A stretch of 64,000 bases of DNA from Nitrospinales bacterium. Lineage in GTDB: Bacteria; Nitrospinota; Nitrospinia; Nitrospinales; VA-1. A program made the translations under genes and the position numbers. Location of the stretch: NCBI GenBank assembly GCA_965262115.1, contig OZ253496.1:1472001-1536000 (forward strand), read 5' to 3'. Of this stretch, positions 1,947-13,622 are shown one piece after another; positions within the stretch are counted from its first letter, which is position 1; the number at the start of each line of letters is the position of its first letter. The notes beneath the pieces were generated by a model that saw only the letters and a program-made list of their open reading frames with translations, did no database searches and was not told the DNA's origin.

Positions 1947-3023
1947 CTAAGTTTTAATCATTTCATAAAGTTCTACATTGTAATACAAGTGATGCCTTCC
2001 CAACCAAAGATCGCCCATGATTCCAGCTTCTTTGAGTTCGTGCAAATGCTTACTGGCGGTTTGAGGGTGAATTTTCAGGGCCGTGGAAAATTGGGTTGGC
2101 GTTGTAAAAAGAAATGAAAAAACATGACTCACAGTTTCAATCGCATTCATCTTAGAATGATTTTTGCGAATAGTTTCTGTCAACCTTTGATATAAACTCA
2201 TCATTTGAAAAATTTTTGTTTTTGTTTTAATAGCTTCTGACCTGAATCCTTCCAGCACGAATAAAATATATGTTTCCCAATCCCCAGTTTCTGTTACTAG
2301 TTGCAGGGTTTGGTAATATTGAGGACGATTCCTGTTAAAATAAGCGCTGGTATACAAAACTGGAAAATCCAGTAAACCCTCCTGCACTAACTGAAGGACC
2401 AGTAATATTCTTCCCGTCCTTCCGTTTCCATCGCCAAAGGGATGAATTGCCTCAAACTGATAATGGGCGATGGCACACCTGATCAGTGGGTCAATTTTCA
2501 GATTGTCCGACCTGTTGACAAAATGTTCCCAATTTTGTATTAACTCGCCTATCCTTGAAGCTATGGGTGGTGTATATGTAATCTCTCCGGTTTTTTTGTT
2601 TTGTATCCCATTTTGTAGTTTCCTGTAACCAACTTTGGTTTGCATCAGTTTTTCGTGTATTCCCAAAACCAACCTTGTTGATATTGAAAAATCTTTGATA
2701 TGCCGCATTGCCCAATGGATCGCCTCTTGATACCTTAAAGTTTCTCTGTCCGGGCCTTTTTGCTCCGATACCGGGAGAACCTGGCTCTTCAAAACACTTT
2801 CTACAGTCGTATGGATTTCTTCAATACCTGAGCTTTCTACGGATTCCTTAGTCATGGCCACGGACATTAGAACCTTTGCGTCTGGGATACTAGTACAGTA
2901 CCCTTTCAGTTCTCCTATCTCCCGGCTTGCAGAATTAAGTGCCTTTAGTATTGAAGTGGCGTCGAAATCTATCTGGGGTGGCAACAGCTTTAAATTATGT
3001 GGTTGATTGGGATTAAAATTCAT
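1947..3023 (-). CDS. Fic family protein (Fic N-terminal region, Fic core, C-terminal HTH)
   Basis: HPFGDGNGRTGR motif; SSGIEE resembles the inhibitory-helix motif; AT-rich. Confidence 0.95.
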   Translation of the reverse strand: MNFNPNQPHNLKLLPPQIDFDATSILKALNSASREIGELKGYCTSIPDAKVLMSVAMTKESVESSGIEEIHTTVESVLKSQVLPVSEQKGPDRETLRYQEAIHWAMRHIKDFSISTRLVLGIHEKLMQTKVGYRKLQNGIQNKKTGEITYTPPIASRIGELIQNWEHFVNRSDNLKIDPLIRCAIAHYQFEAIHPFGDGNGRTGRILLVLQLVQEGLLDFPVLYTSAYFNRNRPQYYQTLQLVTETGDWETYILFVLEGFRSEAIKTKTKIFQMMSLYQRLTETIRKNHSKMNAIETVSHVFSFLFTTPTQFSTALKIHPQTASKHLHELKEAGIMGDLWLGRHHLYYNVELYEMIKT

Positions 3024-3274
3024 TGTTCTGGTAAATGATGTTTTCTTCGAAGTATTCTACCAGAAATATCGAATATTTTTTAATATTTCGACATATTACA
3101 GCGATGTATCGATTTTATTAGAATATTTCAACATATTGGAGGGTAGTATATAGCAGAGGAATAAGATAAATTTCGATGGATTAGCAAAACACATCGAAGT
3201 TAAGTAAAAAATTCGACATAAAGCCACATATCCAAAACCTTTAATTTCAATATATTACCAATAGAAGGGTGAAG

Positions 3275-3321
3275 CCACAAGATATTGTGTTAAGGATTAA
3301 AGAGCATACAAAATATAGAAC
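3275..3321. promoter_or_regulatory. Tandem NrdR-box-like pair, 31-bp period
   Basis: CCACAAGATATTGTGT (3275) and ATACAAAATATAGAAC (3306) fit the core of acaCwAtATaTwGtgt. Confidence 0.55.
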
Positions 3322-3757
3322 TATTTGTGTTTCCTGCTAATTTTCCAGGTTCCCATTAATTAAATAGTTGCGATCAGCTTACAGTCTTTAATGGCCTCCT
3401 TGCCTTCCTCATTCCCAACCAGATAAATATCTGACCTTGCACTTATCCATCCCATTTTAACTTCTTGCCTGACAAAATAATAAATTTGGGGCTGTCCTAG
3501 ATAACATCGAATAGGTGTTATGATGGGTAGTATGAGAAAGAGGAGATTAAGCGCATGGAAGCTCCTTGGAAGGTTTTAGTTGAACCACTATATATCGGCA
3601 GAGGGAAATTATGAAGTGAAATTTTGGAAGGTATTGCTTGGGTATCAGCGTCTATCGCTCCATTTTTGGTCTTTCTCTTTTGAAGTGTGTGTATTGCTTC
3701 TCCTACTGTGCCATTAGTGTGCCATGGCGGTCTTTTGGCGACTTTGAGAGAGAGAAC

Positions 3758-4047
3758 CAGCAGGAAGACGGAACGGTTGTGGTGCCGGAAGTGTTGCGCC
3801 CCTATTTGCACGGGCAGGAAGTTTTAGCAGGGCATCCATAAATCTATAATTTTTATTTTGGCCATTCGCGTAACCTTTATTTAAAGGCTGTGTTCGCGCT
3901 GATAGTGGATTTTTATTACGCCATAAAGCATTGACTTAAAGCAGGAAACCGTCCCTTGACATTTTCCCGCAAGTAGATAAATATAAACGGGCTCACAATA
4001 TTCAGGAGGGATGGCCGAGTGGTTTAAGGCGGCGGTCTTGAAAACCG
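3758..4047 (+). repeat. Right copy of the 290-bp direct repeat, continuing into the intact tRNA-Ser(TGA)
   Basis: Matches 1446-1735; encodes a duplicate SerS C-terminus QQEDGTVVVPEVLRPYLHGQEVLAGHP. Confidence 0.95.
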
Positions 4048-4090
4048 TTGAACGAAAGTTCCGTGGGTTCGAATCCTACTCCCTCCGCCA
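4005..4090 (+). tRNA. tRNA-Ser(TGA)
   Basis: Cloverleaf with long variable arm, anticodon loop CT-TGA-AA, GGTTCGAATCC, CCA end. Confidence 0.97.
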
Positions 4091-4218
4091 CTCTCTAGCG
4101 AGAGAGGCAAATAGCAATAGACGATTGAGCTGAAATAAATCGTTGCTTGCCAGACTGGGCGAATGCTCGTTGCCCCTACGGCTAGTAGCCGTAGGGGCAG
4201 ATAAAAACTATATAGATT

Positions 4219-4450
<232 letters not shown>

Positions 4451-4510
4451 CCCCTTCGGGGCATGAAGGCTGATGAGGGGTCATAACATGGGGCCCAAAA
4501 GGTAAGAACT

Positions 4511-5116
4511 TTGAGACGTTTAAATTACATAGCCCTGCTGGCACTGGTTCTCATAGCGGGTTGCACTTACGAAAGCAAGGAAGATATCGCTGGCCTGAAA
4601 GAGACCGACATCAGCAAACTGAATGTTTCCCAATTTGAAGGATCCCGGTCCAAGCCCGTCCAGCAGATTGAAGCTTCATTGGAAGAAGGTTCGGACAGCT
4701 ATGCGCCTGACGGAAGTCACCCCACAGTTCAAGAGGGAGTGAAAATCCAACGAGCGATTGTCGTGCCCGAGGAGACAGAAGGTAAGTGGAAAGCGGTCAA
4801 GCTTCTGATCAAGAACAAGAAAGACGAAGAACGTAACGAAATGAAAACCATCGCCCTGGGCTCCAGTTTTGAATTGGAAGATTCGGGAATCAGAATTACA
4901 GTGGGCCCGTTTTTACCAAGTTTTGTGATGAGCCAGAAGGCTTATACATCTGGCGGAAACGAACTGACCAACCCTGCTGTTCAATTAGTGGTTGAACAAA
5001 ACGGCAAGACCCTTTATACAGGATGGGCATTCGCGAAATATCCCACGATGTATGCGTTCGAGCACGAAGATTTTGCTCTGCAGTTGATGGATTACATACC
5101 CATTGATGTTTCTTGA
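4511..5116 (+). CDS. Lipoprotein, DUF2155-like C-terminal domain
   Basis: Signal peptide with IAGC lipobox; NPAV...YTGWAFAKYP...FEH pattern. Confidence 0.7.
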   Translation: MRRLNYIALLALVLIAGCTYESKEDIAGLKETDISKLNVSQFEGSRSKPVQQIEASLEEGSDSYAPDGSHPTVQEGVKIQRAIVVPEETEGKWKAVKLLIKNKKDEERNEMKTIALGSSFELEDSGIRITVGPFLPSFVMSQKAYTSGGNELTNPAVQLVVEQNGKTLYTGWAFAKYPTMYAFEHEDFALQLMDYIPIDVS

Positions 5117-5139
5117 CCCGCTAGTCGCCCCTTCGCAGG

Positions 5140-5319
5140 GAGACCTTTGTGTAAGTCGAAAGCGGAAGCAGAAATCCCCCCTCCCTTCATAGGGAGGGGC
5201 CAGGGGAGGGTTGGATTATGAATTCTGTCAAAAACAATCCACACCCCTCCGCGGCTACGCCTTGCCTCCCCTCATGAGAGGGGAGGATCAATGAGGGTCT
5301 CGGGTTGTGCAAAGCTCTC
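5140..5319. mobile_element. MITE (family B) with IS5-like terminal inverted repeats and a 9-bp target duplication
   Basis: GAGACCTTTGTGTAA...TTGTGCAAAGCTCTC; CTTCGCAGG at 5131-5139 and 5320-5328. Confidence 0.8.
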
Positions 5320-5429
5320 CTTCGCAGGGGAGGCAAATTGATATAGCTTGTTGAGCCAAGAGAACGGTTGGACGCGAGATAAAGATATTGCTATTTACCA
5401 GCGGAGGTACTCCGCTAAAACCCAATTAT

Positions 5430-5506
5430 GCGCCCATGGCTCAGCTGGATAGAGCGACGGTTTGCGGAACCGTAGGTCGCAGGTTCGAGTCCTGCTGGGC
5501 GCACCA
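5430..5506 (+). tRNA. tRNA-Arg(GCG)
   Basis: ACGGT-TT-GCG-GA-ACCGT anticodon arm; Arg-type D-loop CTGGATAGAGC; CCA end. Confidence 0.93.
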
Positions 5507-5677
5507 TTACCCGTGTACCCCCCTTTTGGAGCGTGAGACAAGTGAAGATTCACAGGCTCTTGAAGGCCAAGGAGGGGGGTAACACACAGGGGGGTTTGCA
5601 AAAACTCTCCCTCCTGCTCGCCGCAGGGGCAGATAGCAATGGCTTATTAAGCTAAGAGAACGAAAGGAAAAATTTTA

Positions 5678-5875
5678 ATGGCTAAAAGAGAGAAACGACC
5701 AAAAATGGTTTTCCGTAAGTTTTTACAGGATAACCAGAAGCAAATGACCGATTATATAGCCCATGTCGAAGCTTCAGAAAAATATGAACGGGAACCCTGG
5801 ATGTTAGGGTCCGACCCTGAAGGACTCGTCACCCCCGAATCCATTGTCGAACTCAACCAGCTCGGCGACGGCTAG
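5678..5875 (+). CDS. Small hypothetical protein
   Basis: ATG with upstream AAGGA; 65 aa; no recognised motif. Confidence 0.5.
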   Translation: MAKREKRPKMVFRKFLQDNQKQMTDYIAHVEASEKYEREPWMLGSDPEGLVTPESIVELNQLGDG

Positions 5876-6028
5876 CCGGGCCACGCCCGGTGGGATAATG
5901 CAATATCCTGTCAAGCCGCCAACATGGTTTGAGCGTGAGGGCAACATTGGGCAAACATGGGTTTGTAATGCCGAGATAAAAGCTGGACACGGCAGGGCTA
6001 TATAGCTCGTTGCCACTACGGCTAGTAG

Positions 6029-6118
<90 letters not shown>

Positions 6119-6259
6119 CCGGGCCACGCCCGGTGGAAATAGGGCAAGGGTTTTTTCGGTCGAGAAGAATGGTTCATTTTCTGTCCAATGGTGTTACACC
6201 TTAACTTTGAGTATATAGTATGAGGTGTTGATAAATGTTTCTCTTGAGACCAATAAAAA

Positions 6260-7003
6260 ATGACCGAACACCCTAACCTGAAAAACGCACCGATAACGGA
6301 AGCGGCCATAGAGTTTAGGTACCAAGATAAAGTAACGGAATTCCAAACCCTTGAGTCTGTTTATTCAGTATTTGAAAAGGACTTCCCCGAAAAGAAAATA
6401 ATTCACCGTGGAAAAGTGGACGTTACTTTTAGGAAAGATAAGCCAGTCGCTTTACAAGCCGAGGATATGGGCCCAGAAGTTATTATTTTTTCTTCTGCTG
6501 ATCAGAAAAAAATAATTCAGTTAAAGAGGGATAGCTTTTCATTCAGCTGGGTAGGGAAATATTCTAAATGGGAAGAATTTTCATCAAAAGCTTTGGAGCT
6601 TTGGAATAAAGCAGATAAAATATTGAAAAGAGAGGCTTTAATTAGAACAGGTTCCAGGTTTATTAATAATCTTAATATTCCCCAAAATGTAGAATTAAAG
6701 GAAATTATAGTAAACTCCCCGACTCTTCCAAAAGGCACAAGTTTTGAGATGGCAGGGTTTTTAAATCAAATGACCCTTTACGATGACAATAATTCTGTTT
6801 CTGCTGTTGTTTGTTTAGGATTAGACCGTAATGAAATAAAAGAACCAAAACTCCCGGTTATCTTTGATATTGATGTGTTTAGCCTGGATATAATTCCAAA
6901 TGAAAATACTAAAATTAATGAAAATTTGAATAAATTAAGAGTTTTTAAAAACTCTATATTTTTTAATTCCCTTACACCAAAAGGAATGGAGCTATATCAA
7001 TGA
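6260..7003 (+). CDS. TIGR04255-like protein
   Basis: N-terminal L.NAPI.EA.IEFR, Y..WE.F, R.G.RFIN and FDIDV...LR..KN.IFF patterns recalled for this family. Confidence 0.75.
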   Translation: MTEHPNLKNAPITEAAIEFRYQDKVTEFQTLESVYSVFEKDFPEKKIIHRGKVDVTFRKDKPVALQAEDMGPEVIIFSSADQKKIIQLKRDSFSFSWVGKYSKWEEFSSKALELWNKADKILKREALIRTGSRFINNLNIPQNVELKEIIVNSPTLPKGTSFEMAGFLNQMTLYDDNNSVSAVVCLGLDRNEIKEPKLPVIFDIDVFSLDIIPNENTKINENLNKLRVFKNSIFFNSLTPKGMELYQ

Positions 7004-7518
7004 TTGCTCTGAAAGAAAGAAGCGTGTTGCCTTTTGAGCCAGACGAAATTAGCTTTTCCCGTTCTTCAGTGGTCACAACTGATTTAGAAAAATTGATTGA
7101 GGATTCTCCCGGCAGGGAGCCAAATTCATTTGCCGTTAGAGAAAAAATTCATTTACTTCTTGAAGAAATTGATCAAGCTTTTGCTGGTTCTCAAGCGGGA
7201 AACGCTGATAACTATGGAGGTAAAGCAGGTAATACTAATTCCTTCAGAAACATTTGTGAATTTATTTATTTAATGTCAGGGCCGTTATTAGAAATAATGC
7301 CGACAGTTCTTTTAGAACCAGATGGTTCTTTTGCCTTAGACTGGGAAAATGTAAACGCAGATACTTCCTTCGCGGTCAGTTTTGGCCCAAATGACGAATT
7401 ATTTTTTGCGGGGCTTTTTTCAAATGGGGCTAAACAAAGAGGTGTTGAAATTTTTAATAGATTTTGGTTTCCCGAGCCCATTAGTAAAAATATATTACGG
7501 GTCATAAAAGGGAAATAA
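7000..7518 (+). CDS. Hypothetical protein (candidate antitoxin)
   Basis: ATGA overlap with the upstream gene; DNYGG and P....EPDG...LDW patterns. Confidence 0.7.
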   Translation: MIALKERSVLPFEPDEISFSRSSVVTTDLEKLIEDSPGREPNSFAVREKIHLLLEEIDQAFAGSQAGNADNYGGKAGNTNSFRNICEFIYLMSGPLLEIMPTVLLEPDGSFALDWENVNADTSFAVSFGPNDELFFAGLFSNGAKQRGVEIFNRFWFPEPISKNILRVIKGK

Positions 7519-7519
7519 T

Positions 7520-7924
7520 TTGAATTTAAATTCAGTTTCAGATCAAGAAGAATTGTCTAGATTTCTTTTTAACAATCAGGACTTTACAGAAAGCTCAGGA
7601 AATATCCGATGGACTAGATTGATGCCCATATTTTGTGAGCAACTTGATAGATTGGAAACCTCAATATTCAGGACATCTACTTTGAAGCAAGATAAAGAAA
7701 TATGGGCGTTAGGAGATGCTTTTGCAGGTTTGAAGCGAAAACCCCCAAAAGCTATAGCTGTCCTAACAGCAAAACAAATTAGAAATAAGCAGAGATTGGA
7801 TGTGATACCAGAAACCTCAACACACCCGCTCCATGCGGTGATAGTAAATTGGCCAGAGGCAAAAGATGGACAAATGGAGATTTGTAAAGAATTAAACAAG
7901 GAAGCCAAACTAAGGGTTCGATAA
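7520..7924 (+). CDS. Hypothetical protein, candidate ADP-ribosyltransferase-fold toxin
   Basis: Starts 1 nt after the previous stop; E.L.R, ETSIFR and HAVI motifs spaced like an ART fold. Confidence 0.55.
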   Translation: MNLNSVSDQEELSRFLFNNQDFTESSGNIRWTRLMPIFCEQLDRLETSIFRTSTLKQDKEIWALGDAFAGLKRKPPKAIAVLTAKQIRNKQRLDVIPETSTHPLHAVIVNWPEAKDGQMEICKELNKEAKLRVR

Positions 7925-8127
7925 ATATTGTTTCCAATTTAATTTTTAGAATTGTTGTGGTCGGGACCAACGTCGGTAGCTCTCTAATCTAATAGCGGAC
8001 GTTTTCTCGACTTTTTTTGTTAGAATAGGGCTTTGGTGAACGGCTCAGGTTAGCCGAGTGTTGATAGGGCAAAAGCTCAATTCAGCCGAGAAAAACTTTC
8101 GCTTGCCAGATAGAGCGATTGCTCGTT

Positions 8128-8218
<91 letters not shown>

Positions 8219-8320
8219 CCATTCGCCATGGAGGCAAATTGATATAGCCTGTTTGGCCGCGAGGGCAATTGGGCACGAGATAAAGATATTGCATTTTATT
8301 AGCGGAGATTCTCCGCCACT

Positions 8321-8558
8321 GCTCGCCGCAGGGGCAGGTTAAGCCGAGAAGAAGTTTTTGGCTAATTTATAAACTATATAGCTAGTGGGCTCCACGCCGA
8401 GTGGTTGTTCGCCATATCGAGTGATTGCTTATTTTCTGTGGAGGAACTCCGCTCGCCGCAGGGGCAGGTTAAGCCGAGAAGAAGTTTTTAGCTAATTTAT
8501 AAACTATATAGCTAGTGGGCTCCACGCCGAGTGGTTGCTCGCCATATCGAGCAATTGC
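8321..8558 (+). repeat. Tandem duplication, 130-bp period (family A units)
   Basis: GCTCGCCGCAGGGGCAGGTTAAGCCGAG at 8321 and 8451. Confidence 0.92.
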
Positions 8559-8573
8559 ATATTGAAAAGTATT

Positions 8574-8684
8574 GGCAGTTTTGTTGGGCCTCACGCAACG
8601 TGGCTTTGTGAAACCCGTCAGATCCGGAAGGAAGCAGCGGTAGCAAAATTCCATGTGTGCTGTGAGTTCCCCAACAATTCTGCC
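8574..8684 (+). ncRNA. ffs: SRP RNA (4.5S)
   Basis: Domain IV motif TCAGATCCGGAAGGAAGCAGC in a long hairpin closed by GGCAG/CTGCC; lies upstream of dnaX. Confidence 0.93.
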
Positions 8685-8750
8685 TTTAAATAACATCCCC
8701 GGGCGACCCGCGATCAGCGGTTGCCTGCAAATGGTCGGTCTTCTGAAATA

Positions 8751-10349
<1,599 letters not shown>

Positions 10350-10376
10350 AAAATTCCTCGAACAACAGGTGTTTAA

Positions 10377-10700
10377 ATGAGCGATGATAAAGGATGGTTC
10401 TCGTTATTAAAACAGGCTCAGGACATGCAGTCCAAGCTTGCTGAAATTCAGGAAGGCCTCGCTGAAAAAATGGTGGAAGTGTCTACCGGTGGCGGTATGG
10501 TGAAGGTGGTTGCTAATGGACTCAACGAAATTATCTCGGTCCATATTGATGACGAATTGATCAACATGAACGATCGGGAAGTGCTCGAAGACCTGATCAC
10601 CGGCGCCATGAACGAAGTTCATAAGAAAGTGAAAGATCTGGCGCAGGGTGAAATGTCCAAATTGACCGGGGGCCTGAAAATTCCCGGATTGTTCACCTAA
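10377..10700 (+). CDS. ybaB: YbaB/EbfC nucleoid-associated protein
   Basis: KQAQ.MQ, GGGMVKV, LEDLI..A.N; dnaX-ybaB-recR synteny. Confidence 0.95.
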   Translation: MSDDKGWFSLLKQAQDMQSKLAEIQEGLAEKMVEVSTGGGMVKVVANGLNEIISVHIDDELINMNDREVLEDLITGAMNEVHKKVKDLAQGEMSKLTGGLKIPGLFT

Positions 10701-10754
10701 TTACCAGCGGAGGTACTCCGCTAAAAATTAACTTTTTCCATTAGTCGTCTCACC

Positions 10755-11357
10755 GTGAAAAGACCCCCCGCAGTTACAAACCTTATAGATGAATTGAAGA
10801 GGCTTCCCGGCATTGGCCAGAAAACCGCTGAACGTTTGTCGTTTTTCCTGATGCGCGGAAAAGCCGAGCAGGCCAATAAACTCGCCACAGCCATTCAGAA
10901 TCTTAAGGAAAAGATTATCCTCTGTTCGATTTGCCATGGCATCACCGAGTCTGACCCCTGCGATATTTGTTCAGACACTTCCCGCGACCATTCACAGATT
11001 TGCGTGGTGGAAGAACCACACGACGTTTATGTGATGGAAAACATGGGTTATTTCAAAGGCGTTTATCATGTGTTGATGGGGGTGATTTCTCCGCTGGATG
11101 GAATTGGCCCCGATGATCTGAACATCGAAATGTTGAAAGAAAAAGTCAGCAAGCCGGGTATCCGTGAGGTCATCCTGGCGACCAATCCGGACATGGAAGG
11201 TGAATCCACCGCCGTGTATATCTCAAAGGTTTTAAAACCTTACGGTGAAGTTAAGGTCACACGCATTGCCCGGGGCCTGCCGGTGGGTTCGGATATTGAG
11301 TATGCCGACTCCGTGACCCTGTTGAAATCGCTGGAAGGCCGCATGGAAATGACGTAA
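10755..11357 (+). CDS. recR: Recombination protein RecR
   Basis: LPGIG.KTAERL, C4 zinc finger, TOPRIM, GLPVG. Confidence 0.98.
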   Translation: MKRPPAVTNLIDELKRLPGIGQKTAERLSFFLMRGKAEQANKLATAIQNLKEKIILCSICHGITESDPCDICSDTSRDHSQICVVEEPHDVYVMENMGYFKGVYHVLMGVISPLDGIGPDDLNIEMLKEKVSKPGIREVILATNPDMEGESTAVYISKVLKPYGEVKVTRIARGLPVGSDIEYADSVTLLKSLEGRMEMT

Positions 11358-11497
11358 CAAGGCTACGCCTTGAGGAAATGGCAGGACCATAATATGCTTG
11401 GCAAAAAATGGGCAAAGGGTAAATTTAGCCGAGAAAAAGTTTGTCAGCAGAAATACCATATAGCTAGTGGGCCCCACGCCTGGTGGGGGAAATCCAC

Positions 11498-11526
11498 TTG
11501 ACAATATGTTACAAAACAATTAAATT
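11498..11526 (+). promoter_or_regulatory. Sigma70-type promoter for tRNA-Asn
   Basis: TTGACA-17 bp-TAAATT. Confidence 0.7.
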
Positions 11527-11557
11527 TAAGTGTTTTAATCCAATTCAAGAAAACCAT

Positions 11558-11632
11558 TCCGGTGTGGCGCAATGGTAGCGCAATCGGCTGTTAACCGATG
11601 TGTTAGAGGTTCAAATCCTCTCACCGGAGCCA
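11558..11632 (+). tRNA. tRNA-Asn(GTT)
   Basis: ATCGG-CT-GTT-AA-CCGAT arm; CCA end. Confidence 0.96.
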
Positions 11633-11769
11633 GTTTTTGTCTCCTTTTTCAGGGGCATAGATTACAAAACCCTGTCGAACCCACTACCGGGTTTTGCTTT
11701 AGGTTGCAAAGGTCAAATTGATCCGTTATTCTTCTTCATGTTGGTAAACCTCTGCAATAAGAGGCACTT

Positions 11770-12750
11770 ATGATTCAAAGACCGCGCAGAAACAGATTGA
11801 ATCCGGCCGTTCGTGGGCTGATCCGGGAATCGCAAGTGAACCCGGCCAACCTGGTCTGGCCCACTTTCGTGCAGGAAGGCAAGAACCTTCGCACTCCGAT
11901 CGTGTCGATGCCGGGCATCTCAAGGCTTTCCATCGACCAGCTTGCCGCCGATTGCCAAAAGGCCTTTGATCTGGGAATCCCGGCGGTCGCCCTCTTCCCG
12001 GTTTTGGATGAATCTTTAAAAAATTCCGAGGGCAAGGAAAGTCTTAATTCTAACGGACTTCTGCAACGCGCGGTGAAGGAGTTAAAGAAAACCATTCCCG
12101 GTATGTTGGTGATTACCGATGTGGCGCTGGACCCTTATTCCAGTGACGGGCATGACGGACTGGTTAAAGACGGAAAAATTTTGAACGATGAAACGCTTCC
12201 TCTACTTGCTGGCATGGCGGTGGTCCAGGCCGAAGCGGGAGCCGATGTGGTGGCGCCCTCCGACATGATGGATGGCCGGGTCGAGGCCATTTGCTGGGCT
12301 CTGGACGAGGCGGGATTTGAGGATGTGTTGATCTGCAGTTACTGTGCAAAATATGCTTCGGCGTTTTACGGGCCGTTTCGCGATGCGCTCGATTCTGCTC
12401 CGAAAGAGGGCGATAAAAAAACCTATCAAATGGATCCGGCCAATGCCCGTGAAGCGATACGGGAAATTTTGCTGGATGAAGAAGAAGGGGCAGACTGGTT
12501 GCTGATCAAACCGGGCCTGCCTTATCTGGATATCATCCGATTAACGCGCGAGCATTCGGCGCTCCCCATTGCCGCTTACCATGTCAGCGGAGAATATGCC
12601 ATGCTGAAAGCCGCTGCCGAAAAAGGCTGGCTCGATTATGACAGCTGTCTGATAGAGTCGCTCCTCAGCATGCGCCGCGCCGGAGCAGATATGATCTTCA
12701 CCTATGGCGCCATTGATGCTGCCAGAATAATTCGGAAATCTCGCGGTTGA
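11770..12750 (+). CDS. hemB: Porphobilinogen synthase
   Basis: RPRRNR, DVALDPY..DGHDG, SDMMDGRV, FYGPFRDA, YQMDP, KPG. Confidence 0.98.
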   Translation: MIQRPRRNRLNPAVRGLIRESQVNPANLVWPTFVQEGKNLRTPIVSMPGISRLSIDQLAADCQKAFDLGIPAVALFPVLDESLKNSEGKESLNSNGLLQRAVKELKKTIPGMLVITDVALDPYSSDGHDGLVKDGKILNDETLPLLAGMAVVQAEAGADVVAPSDMMDGRVEAICWALDEAGFEDVLICSYCAKYASAFYGPFRDALDSAPKEGDKKTYQMDPANAREAIREILLDEEEGADWLLIKPGLPYLDIIRLTREHSALPIAAYHVSGEYAMLKAAAEKGWLDYDSCLIESLLSMRRAGADMIFTYGAIDAARIIRKSRG

Positions 12751-12794
12751 TGGTTTAACAATCTCCCTGCTTCCATCGGGCGAGGCCCGACACT

Positions 12795-13622
12795 ATGGCA
12801 AGTCCCAATTACTGGGTTCACGATCTGGACCCGTTTCTATTTCAATTTACAGAGAATTTTGGCATCCGCTATTACGGGTTGGCCTATGCGCTGGGCTTTC
12901 TTGCCGGGATGTGGCTCCTGCACCTTTTTTGCAAGCATGGCAAAGCGGTGCTCACGCCCGAACAACAGTCGCTCACCATTACCGCCATGATGATTGGGGT
13001 TTTGCTGGGCGGACGTTTGGGGTACTCACTGTTCTACGCGCTGGACAACACTCTGCACCGACCCTGGATCATATTGCAAATCTGGAAAGGCGGAATGGCC
13101 AGTCACGGCGGGTTCATCGGTGTGCTTGTGGCCTGCTGGTGGGTGGCAAAAAAACTGAAACTTTCTTTTCTGCAACTCGGCGACTTGTTGTGTCCTTTAG
13201 TACCACCGGGAATTTTGCTGGGACGTATTGCAAATTTCATCAACGGCGAACTGTGGGGTAAAGTCACTCATGTTTCCTGGGCGGTGATCTTTCCGCAAAG
13301 CGCTATGCTGGGAACTCCTCTGGAACAGATCGCTCCGCGTCATCCTTCGCAACTTTATGAAGCCGGACTGGAGGGAGCCTTATTGCTGATATACAGCCAG
13401 TGGCGGTTGTGGAAAACCGATGCTCTGAATCAGCCCGGCAGATTGACCGGCGAGTTTCTCATGATCTATGCGGTGGTGCGCGTTTTCGGCGAACAGTTCA
13501 GAGAACCCGATGCTCCGCTTATTATGGACCTCAGCCGAGGCAGTTTTTACAGCCTGTTTCTGCTCGCTGGCGGACTTTACCTGGTTCTGCGGTCCCGCCG
13601 GGCAACGCCCGGTAGTAATTAG
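12795..13622 (+). CDS. lgt: Prolipoprotein diacylglyceryl transferase
   Basis: GGMASHGG, GRIANFINGELWG, RHPSQLYE. Confidence 0.97.
   Translation: MASPNYWVHDLDPFLFQFTENFGIRYYGLAYALGFLAGMWLLHLFCKHGKAVLTPEQQSLTITAMMIGVLLGGRLGYSLFYALDNTLHRPWIILQIWKGGMASHGGFIGVLVACWWVAKKLKLSFLQLGDLLCPLVPPGILLGRIANFINGELWGKVTHVSWAVIFPQSAMLGTPLEQIAPRHPSQLYEAGLEGALLLIYSQWRLWKTDALNQPGRLTGEFLMIYAVVRVFGEQFREPDAPLIMDLSRGSFYSLFLLAGGLYLVLRSRRATPGSN

Follow-up and report, generated by a model that had tools for sequence, protein, structure and literature searches.

Within a 64,000-nucleotide stretch of a Nitrospinales bacterium genome (contig OZ253496.1, positions 1,472,001 to 1,536,000; hereafter the window), three tightly coupled genes at window positions 6260-7924 form a cassette whose first gene encodes a protein of the TIGR04255 family. 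The cassette is a real, intact member of a modular and seemingly undescribed three-gene family. On balance, the evidence leans toward a three-part controller-antitoxin-toxin defense cassette, in which a predicted toxin with an ADP-ribosyltransferase (ART) fold, encoded by open reading frame 3 (ORF3), would be held by the product of ORF2, with the ORF1 protein as controller. This reading is supported by the conservation of the operon, the exchange of its gene pairs, the ART-like character of ORF3, the patchy presence of the family, the listing of TIGR04255 proteins as predicted defense genes, and links to the PADLOC candidate system PDC-M32. The three genes are as follows:

ORF1, 6260..7003, plus strand: 247 amino acids (aa), ATG start; TIGR04255 family; putative controller (sensor or chaperone)
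ORF2, 7000..7518, plus strand: 172 aa, acidic (net -9); putative antitoxin
ORF3, 7520..7924, plus strand: 134 aa, TTG start; predicted ART fold; putative toxin

The genes and their predicted products

ORF1 and ORF2 are joined by an ATGA overlap, and ORF2 and ORF3 are separated by 1 nucleotide, at the coordinates given by a first-pass annotation that had proposed a chaperone-antitoxin-toxin system; the frames are intact in contigs of three runs. Contig pieces of runs X3 and X4 match the cassette with 0 differences and 0 gaps, and those of run X5 cover it except for a 50-nucleotide hole (the runs represent three study codes, X3 being from the same study as the likely source of the window). Because these contigs agree without differences, the reading frames are real rather than an assembly error. 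Synonymous and non-synonymous codon differences from the relatives with broken copies (24/24, 20/26, and 14/17) give a rough sign of what may be purifying selection on all three genes. A promoter and terminator scan of the cassette found no signal exceeding that of shuffled sequences.

The ART fold first proposed for ORF3 is upheld by structure prediction (pLDDT 95.6) and VIA-align, in which nearly all 50 rows belong to the ART superfamily. The rows include the tRNA 2'-phosphotransferase Tpt1 (Z 7.2, root-mean-square deviation (rmsd) 3.5, 93 aligned), Tse2 (PDB 5ako; Z 7.0, rmsd 3.6, 108 aligned, 15% identity), HopF2 (Z 6.0), RES toxins, Tne2, Scabin, and DarT. A profile search of 1.84 billion representatives recovered 451 proteins at E ≤ 0.001, and in the 142 aligned family members the arginine, serine, and histidine motifs picked out by the first-pass annotation prove to be real: S48 and H105 are found in 142/142 and R14 in 96%, which makes them the most conserved residues. 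The ART call is based on this consistent match list together with the motif conservation. In the model, R14 lies in strand 11-16, T47-S48 in strand 44-51, and H105 at strand 105-109, so that R14/T47/S48/H105 would correspond, in order and secondary structure, to a Tse2-like R-S-H pattern. The predicted pocket of Tse2 is R14/T79/S80/H122 (bioRxiv 10.64898/2026.06.15.732508), and a review presents Tse2 as an NAD-dependent ADP-ribosyltransferase blocked by Tsi2 (PMC6099711). PADLOC PDC-M32B is matched by 19 of the 142 homologues (best E 5.3e-9). Searches of Pfam with ORF3 and the 142 homologues gave nothing beyond three single chance matches, the ORF3 profile retrieved only eIF4E (E 0.3) from a PDB sequence search, and the ESM Atlas yielded only "hypothetical" clusters for both ORF3 and ORF2. 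Queries from the ORF2 and ORF3 families had no match in plasmids or phages.

ORF1 matches TIGR04255, as had been suggested, with an E value of 5.5e-28 (98.5 bits against an NCBIfam cut-off of 30; profile positions 2-247 of 252), and has no Pfam family at E ≤ 1. A match to PADLOC PDC-M04B (E 0.014, 37 residues, 1/59 family members) was dismissed as chance. The model, built from a 59-sequence alignment (pLDDT 93.4, pTM 0.87), consists of two alpha/beta lobes. Foldseek places archaeal TBP and AdoMetDC at the top (E 4e-4 to 6e-4, TM <0.4); in VIA-align the best match is the McsB kinase domain (Z 8.6, rmsd 4.7, 179 aligned), and next come the spermine synthase N-domain, guanido kinases, AdoMetDC, TBP (Z 7.0, rmsd 5.0, 154 aligned), and RepDE. 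These middling scores suggest a TBP-like saddle arrangement and carry no indication of function. The first-pass view of ORF1 as a double-length SecB-like chaperone gains no support: besides the missing Pfam match, SecB is not among the listed structural matches from either program (no direct superposition with SecB was run), and no internal repeat between the halves is detected (hhalign probability 0.4%). The conserved positions (E14, Q87, Y101, R129, R133, N136, D203, D205, and F234) are mostly polar or charged, and seven of them (E14, Q87, R129, R133, N136, D203, and D205) are located in or beside beta-strands of the model; a ligand pocket therefore stays a rival to chaperone action.

ORF2 has a variable N-terminal part of about 47 aa and a conserved domain (P-x-V-x-L-E-P-D-G...W) that reaches the C-terminus. 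ORF2 itself has no match in Pfam, NCBIfam, or PADLOC; BLAST links it to gene 2 of locus L017, which, like gene 2 of L015, L016, and L019, matches the C-terminal part of PADLOC PDC-M32A (E 2.6e-6 to 0.0025). The ORF2 relatives align to positions ~257-369 of PDC-M32A, and L012, L015, and L019 were grouped with ORF2 by the alignment of this analysis, so that their hidden Markov model (HMM) scores are circular. The 118-119-aa partners of stand-alone HEPN genes match gene-2 proteins of TIGR04255 operons, which are 186-199 aa long, only over the C-terminal ~90 aa (E 0.001-0.03). Because these shorter partners align C-terminally, gene 2 of TIGR04255 operons has an extra N-terminal stretch, in a comparison that covers two loci of one genus.

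Exchange of gene pairs behind a constant first gene

TIGR04255 is present in 14/120 genomes of the phylum, with three copies in the genome of the window, and among 300 small genomes of another phylum there is 1 match. Of 246 confirmed metagenome loci, 80 were kept, which belong to one subclade and include some duplicates; 5 of them ended too early for a gene-2 call. Genes 1 and 2 overlap by 4 nucleotides in 69 of the 75 loci with a called gene 2, and every locus with at least 1 kb downstream (52/52) has two complete downstream genes, which bears out the co-occurrence of the three genes elsewhere. In the window, as in all related loci, the TIGR04255 gene comes first, the antitoxin-like gene second, and the toxin-like gene third. 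The third genes fall into the following classes:

DUF7689: 61 loci (label from L006, Pfam E 2e-40)
window clade: 5 locus ids in 3 genomes (by clustering)
QGD: 5 loci, plus L021 by eye (family without a name)
HEPN-like: 3 loci (plasmid homologues annotated HEPN)
other ART-like: L012, L019, L015, and L102 (motif by eye, weak profile support)
HicA-like: L009 (by eye)
zeta toxin: L103 (annotated)

Alignment of the ORF3 profile with the third gene of L012 is weak (E 0.0056, probability 6.6%; HMM E 0.021), so L012, L015, L019, and L102 are termed ART-like by motif only. Gene-2 clusters largely follow the gene-3 classes, with L004 an exception in BLAST clustering and the clustering rows for L016 and L100 being miscalls. 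The gene-2/gene-3 pair is swapped as a unit behind a constant TIGR04255 gene. TIGR04255 also occurs on plasmids (3 records). With the patterns used, viral contigs held no relative of ORF3, TIGR04255, or DUF7689, and no TIGR04255 or ORF3 relative was found in phage records.

The window's own genome (G000, contig C1) holds two more TIGR04255 cassettes. The one at G000:C1:1675735-1677445 (L007:1492-3211) is apparently intact and has a HEPN-like third gene; in the other, at G000:C1:1813526-1815300 (L020:1477-3278), the first gene is frameshifted close to its end and the third gene is a short member of the QGD family. QGD third genes (L004, L008, L010, L014, L020, and L021) encode proteins of ~200 aa with "QGD(I/V)" and "T-x-S/T-C-D" motifs and have no Pfam or NCBIfam match; by eye, we take the family to resemble a PemK/MazF-type toxin. 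In L006 and L022-L099, the gene after TIGR04255 always encodes a conserved helical protein of ~145 aa and the next one DUF7689 (C...H motifs, papain-like by eye); the two form a candidate protease toxin-antitoxin pair. A DUF7689-like domain is also found within a longer ORF on Bacteroides plasmids, with no TIGR04255 annotated nearby.

The pair of ORF2 domain and ART appears portable, a module joined to different front ends, as suggested by the PDC-M32 matches, by the front end of L112 and L113, and by a pair at L114 without TIGR04255. At L114:1042-1794 (G000:C1, about 1448200-1448960, minus strand), an ORF2-like gene with a match to the PDC-M32A C-terminus (E 2.4e-6) is followed by a 113-aa gene with R/S/H-like motifs that is ART-like by eye only. 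The PDC-M32A N-terminal domain is also part of a ~305-aa protein encoded at L112:1486-2816 and L113:1480-2816, coupled there to a gene that is PIN/VapC-like by eye; judged in the same way, this domain would be another front end shared between different toxins.

Several relatives carry broken cassettes. L001 and L002 share a 1-nucleotide deletion early in ORF1 (L001:4125-4140, L002:4125-4140; window ~6390) that gives an 8-A run. L001 also lacks the end of ORF3, H105 included, and in L002 a 23-nucleotide deletion frameshifts ORF2 after residue ~45. All three cassette genes are in pieces in G072, and G005 has lost most of ORF1 and has a split ORF3. Among the four ORF3-family loci with a broken ORF1, ORF3 is broken too in three, and ORF2 and ORF3 are both intact in none; because 0/4 keep both partners, the joint loss matches what would be expected if ORF1 were protective. 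Programmed slippage at the A-run of L001 and L002 is the less likely reading: pseudogenization is simpler, since the window and four other relatives have full-length ORF1 and these two loci carry more lesions.

Genomic setting

The AT-rich character noted at first is confirmed, with a GC content of 35.9% for the cassette, 46.6% for the window, and 46.8% for the genome; a value as low as that of the cassette is reached in 5/624 sliding 1665-nucleotide windows. The closest named relatives are Nitrospinales/Nitrospina genomes at 87-88% protein identity. The cassette lies in a tRNA cluster upstream of dnaX, flanked by two genes:

tRNA-Ser(CGA), 6029..6118, plus strand: upstream flank of the cassette
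tRNA-Ser(GGA), 8128..8218, plus strand: downstream flank, in the tRNA cluster upstream of dnaX

The first-pass annotation had these positions right, but the arrangement is not conserved: tRNA-Ser(CGA) is missing from the locus in relative L001 and lies downstream of the cassette in relative L002, so the bracket formed by the two tRNA-Ser genes is incidental. Cargo at this site varies among genomes of the genus. Only 3 of the 14 genus loci fetched at or near it hold the cassette (the window's own genome, G053, and G073), which marks the cassette as accessory cargo; the remaining loci have other genes or none within the fetched stretch, and three have no tRNA in view. No integrase-like ORF was seen among ORFs of at least 60 aa at 2000-13000 (read by eye; 6 ORFs were HMM-scanned), in agreement with the first-pass annotation.

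A 16-nucleotide repeat at 5878/6121 was considered as an att site and ruled out by its 5 genome copies (no systematic repeat search was made). Two short repeats recur after tRNA genes, one set at window positions 4313, 5617, 8322, and 8452 and the other at 5878, 6121, and 51135, and a tandem duplication of ~130 nucleotides lies within 8300-8560. An AT-rich SoFic-like Fic gene (Pfam Fic E 2.9e-18) is encoded on the minus strand at 1947-3023, near the same tRNA cluster. A 65-aa ORF at 5678-5875 has no family match and is conserved in place in genus relative L135. Upstream of dnaX, a stretch at ~8570-8700 is conserved across the genus and resembles the SRP RNA gene (ffs). Relative L001 alone has a 317-aa ORF directly upstream of the cassette (L001:2535-3488); by eye, it is dCTP-deaminase-like, with a C-terminal coiled coil and two hydrophobic helices, and it is possibly a further defense gene.

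Known systems, mechanism, and competing explanations

The first-pass annotation had likened the cassette to CmdTAC, a toxin-antitoxin-chaperone (TAC) system. The toxin-antitoxin-plus-accessory layout stands, in reversed order, whereas the toxin motif differs: CmdT has an H-Y-[E,D,Q] triad (PMC11618068) and ORF3 has R-S-H. Like TAC systems (CmdTAC / PD-T4-9; PMC11618068; bioRxiv 10.1101/2024.02.24.581848), the cassette combines three coupled genes with an ART-fold toxin, a constant accessory gene that is found with different toxin-antitoxin pairs, and an antitoxin with an extra variable tail. In contrast to the toxin-antitoxin-chaperone order of TAC, its order is accessory-antitoxin-toxin. The TAC chaperone belongs to the SecB family (PD-T4-9C matches PF02556 by HHpred; PMC13092281 supplement), whereas ORF1 has no SecB match and is modeled as a TBP-like saddle. 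In TAC antitoxins the C-terminus is a disordered chaperone-addiction (ChAD) tail (in CmdA, a helical protein, it is unstructured; PMC11618068), whereas in ORF2 the variable part is N-terminal and the conserved C-terminal domain is folded. The best reading of these likenesses is that the cassette may work like TAC without being a member, given that it differs from TAC in the sequence family of the accessory protein (not SecB), in gene order, in where the antitoxin tail lies, and in the triad of the toxin.

Tse2, a type VI secretion system antibacterial effector of P. aeruginosa, resembles ORF3 in its ART fold and in having R, T-S, and H in the same order; unlike Tse2, ORF3 belongs to an operon of three genes, and no secretion genes were seen close by. 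The two-gene PADLOC candidate PDC-M32 resembles the cassette in that relatives of ORF3 match PDC-M32B and relatives of ORF2 match the C-terminus of PDC-M32A. PDC-M32A (375 aa) differs in that its N-terminal ~250 positions form another domain, not TIGR04255, and 0/59 TIGR04255 proteins match it. Among the papers searched, PDC-M32 appears in one, as a prophage annotation (PMC12429752); it is not named in the main text of the PDC preprint, the supplements of which may describe it. The DefensePredictor supplements (PMC13092281) list TIGR04255 proteins as predicted novel defense genes and DS-42 (PRO1) as a validated, replicated defense system, with about 1.1 log efficiency of plating and smaller plaques on Bas1 in one row. 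DS-42 is like the cassette in having three genes, with a 238-aa first gene that overlaps a 190-aa second gene by 4 nucleotides, and is unlike it in that DS-42C is a 363-aa metallo-beta-lactamase (MBL)-fold hydrolase rather than a 134-aa ART-fold protein.

If the cassette is a controller-antitoxin-toxin defense system, the C-terminal domain of ORF2 would bind and block ORF3, and the variable N-terminal extension would serve ORF1 as a handle, mirroring the chaperone-addiction tail that TAC antitoxins carry at the C-terminus. ORF1 would keep the antitoxin working until an infection signal, when a phage product might compete for the ORF1 saddle, so that ORF2 would be lost and ORF3 released. ORF3 would then arrest the infected cell through an NAD+-dependent modification of a target in host or phage, probably the translation machinery or nucleic acid. 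The logic of this scheme is borrowed by analogy from CmdTAC and HigBAC (PMC11618068; bioRxiv 10.1101/2024.02.24.581848). The interpretation offered by the first-pass annotation is partly supported, with chaperone function, toxicity, and phage defense retained as putative roles.

Several points weigh against this defense reading. The conserved charged residues of ORF1 would suit a ligand pocket no less well than a chaperone groove. For ORF3, Foldseek returns no match at E ≤ 0.001 and all VIA-align Z scores are below 8; the ORF2 and ORF3 proteins of the window have no PDC-M32 match of their own, so that the link passes through relatives. The N-terminal extensions have no motif in common across gene-2 classes (2/23 at p<0.05; window ORF2 p=0.17). 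Simple decay of a dead operon may account for the joint breakage, and the sample of broken copies is small, L001 and L002 being kin with one common lesion. L002, moreover, has an intact ORF3 while ORF1 and ORF2 are frameshifted, which conflicts with a strictly lethal toxin unless the operon is silent or a restart supplies the antitoxin core.

It is rather unlikely, although worth serious consideration, that ORF1 is a sensor (or enzyme) that binds a ligand or nucleic acid, detects infection through its conserved charged pocket, and actively switches on ORF2/ORF3, which would still be defense. The conserved charged residues in or next to the beta-strands of the model agree with such a role; its best structural matches, the McsB kinase domain, guanido kinases, TBP, and RepDE, use the sheet to bind nucleotides or DNA, and 1.5% of bacterial Schlafen anti-phage nucleases carry a fused TBP-like domain (PMC13056530). 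However, identity to the structural matches is ~10% with an rmsd of 4-5 Å, indicating a common arrangement only, and the longer gene-2 N-termini and the loss of the toxin upon ORF1 breakage suit a protective role better than an activating one. A selfish addiction module, i.e., a tripartite toxin-antitoxin system that serves its own maintenance or that of a mobile element and plays no part against phages, is improbable. It would account for the plasmid occurrence (3 records), the variable tRNA site, the frequent pseudogenization, and the lack of TIGR04255 or ORF3 relatives in the viral contigs and phage records searched, but antiphage TAC systems likewise combine one constant gene with many exchangeable toxin classes (bioRxiv 10.1101/2024.02.24.581848), and the predicted-defense listing (PMC13092281 supplements) and the links to PDC-M32 also argue against it.

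True TAC membership, with ORF1 as a highly diverged SecB-like chaperone made of two fused SecB-like units, is very unlikely. SecB is about half the length of ORF1, the ORF1 model is two-lobed and alpha/beta, and the three-part layout with an ART toxin is that of CmdTAC; yet ORF1 lacks a Pfam match, its halves lack a sequence repeat, its best structural matches are other folds, the gene order is reversed, ORF2 has a folded C-terminal domain where TAC antitoxins have a disordered tail, and the toxin motif is R-S-H rather than H-Y-E. It is scarcely credible that ORF3 is a housekeeping ART-fold enzyme (a Tpt1-like phosphotransferase) in a small RNA or nucleotide repair operon. Although its best structural match is the tRNA 2'-phosphotransferase (Z 7.2, level with Tse2) and the cassette sits amid tRNA genes, ORF3 has only 134 aa and no Tpt1/KptA match in Pfam or NCBIfam (nor do the 142 homologues in Pfam), unrelated toxin-like genes take its place in other operons, and the cassette is patchy and often broken.

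Beyond the defense reading of this one cassette lies a wider proposal, which is tentative: TIGR04255 may be the sensor hub of an undescribed, widespread antiphage class, in which a TBP-like saddle gates interchangeable antitoxin-toxin warheads via the antitoxin N-terminal tail. The warheads would comprise the Tse2-like ART, HEPN, zeta toxin, DUF7689, and the QGD family, and probably a HicA-like protein and an MBL nuclease. Such a class would have evolved independently of SecB-based TAC immunity, as its mirror image, and would give a Tse2-type ART a part in phage defense. The string TIGR04255 is absent from the main texts searched, and so is any description of the operon family (subscription journals and bioRxiv supplements lay outside the search); the accessible parts of PMC13069673, the PDC preprint, and PMC13056530 do not describe the family. 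The NetFlax supplements (PMC10440598) contain no TIGR04255, Tse2, or DUF7689, and a literature search for Tse2 with anti-phage or toxin-antitoxin terms gave unrelated items only.

If the proposal is true, the long-unannotated TIGR04255 family would gain a function together with several unnamed toxin and antitoxin families, and the "constant sensor plus swappable warhead" design of TAC immunity would have arisen a second time from a different fold. To our knowledge, the target of Tse2 has not yet been resolved, and a cytoplasmic, operon-encoded Tse2-like ART would offer a route to the target of that toxin class.

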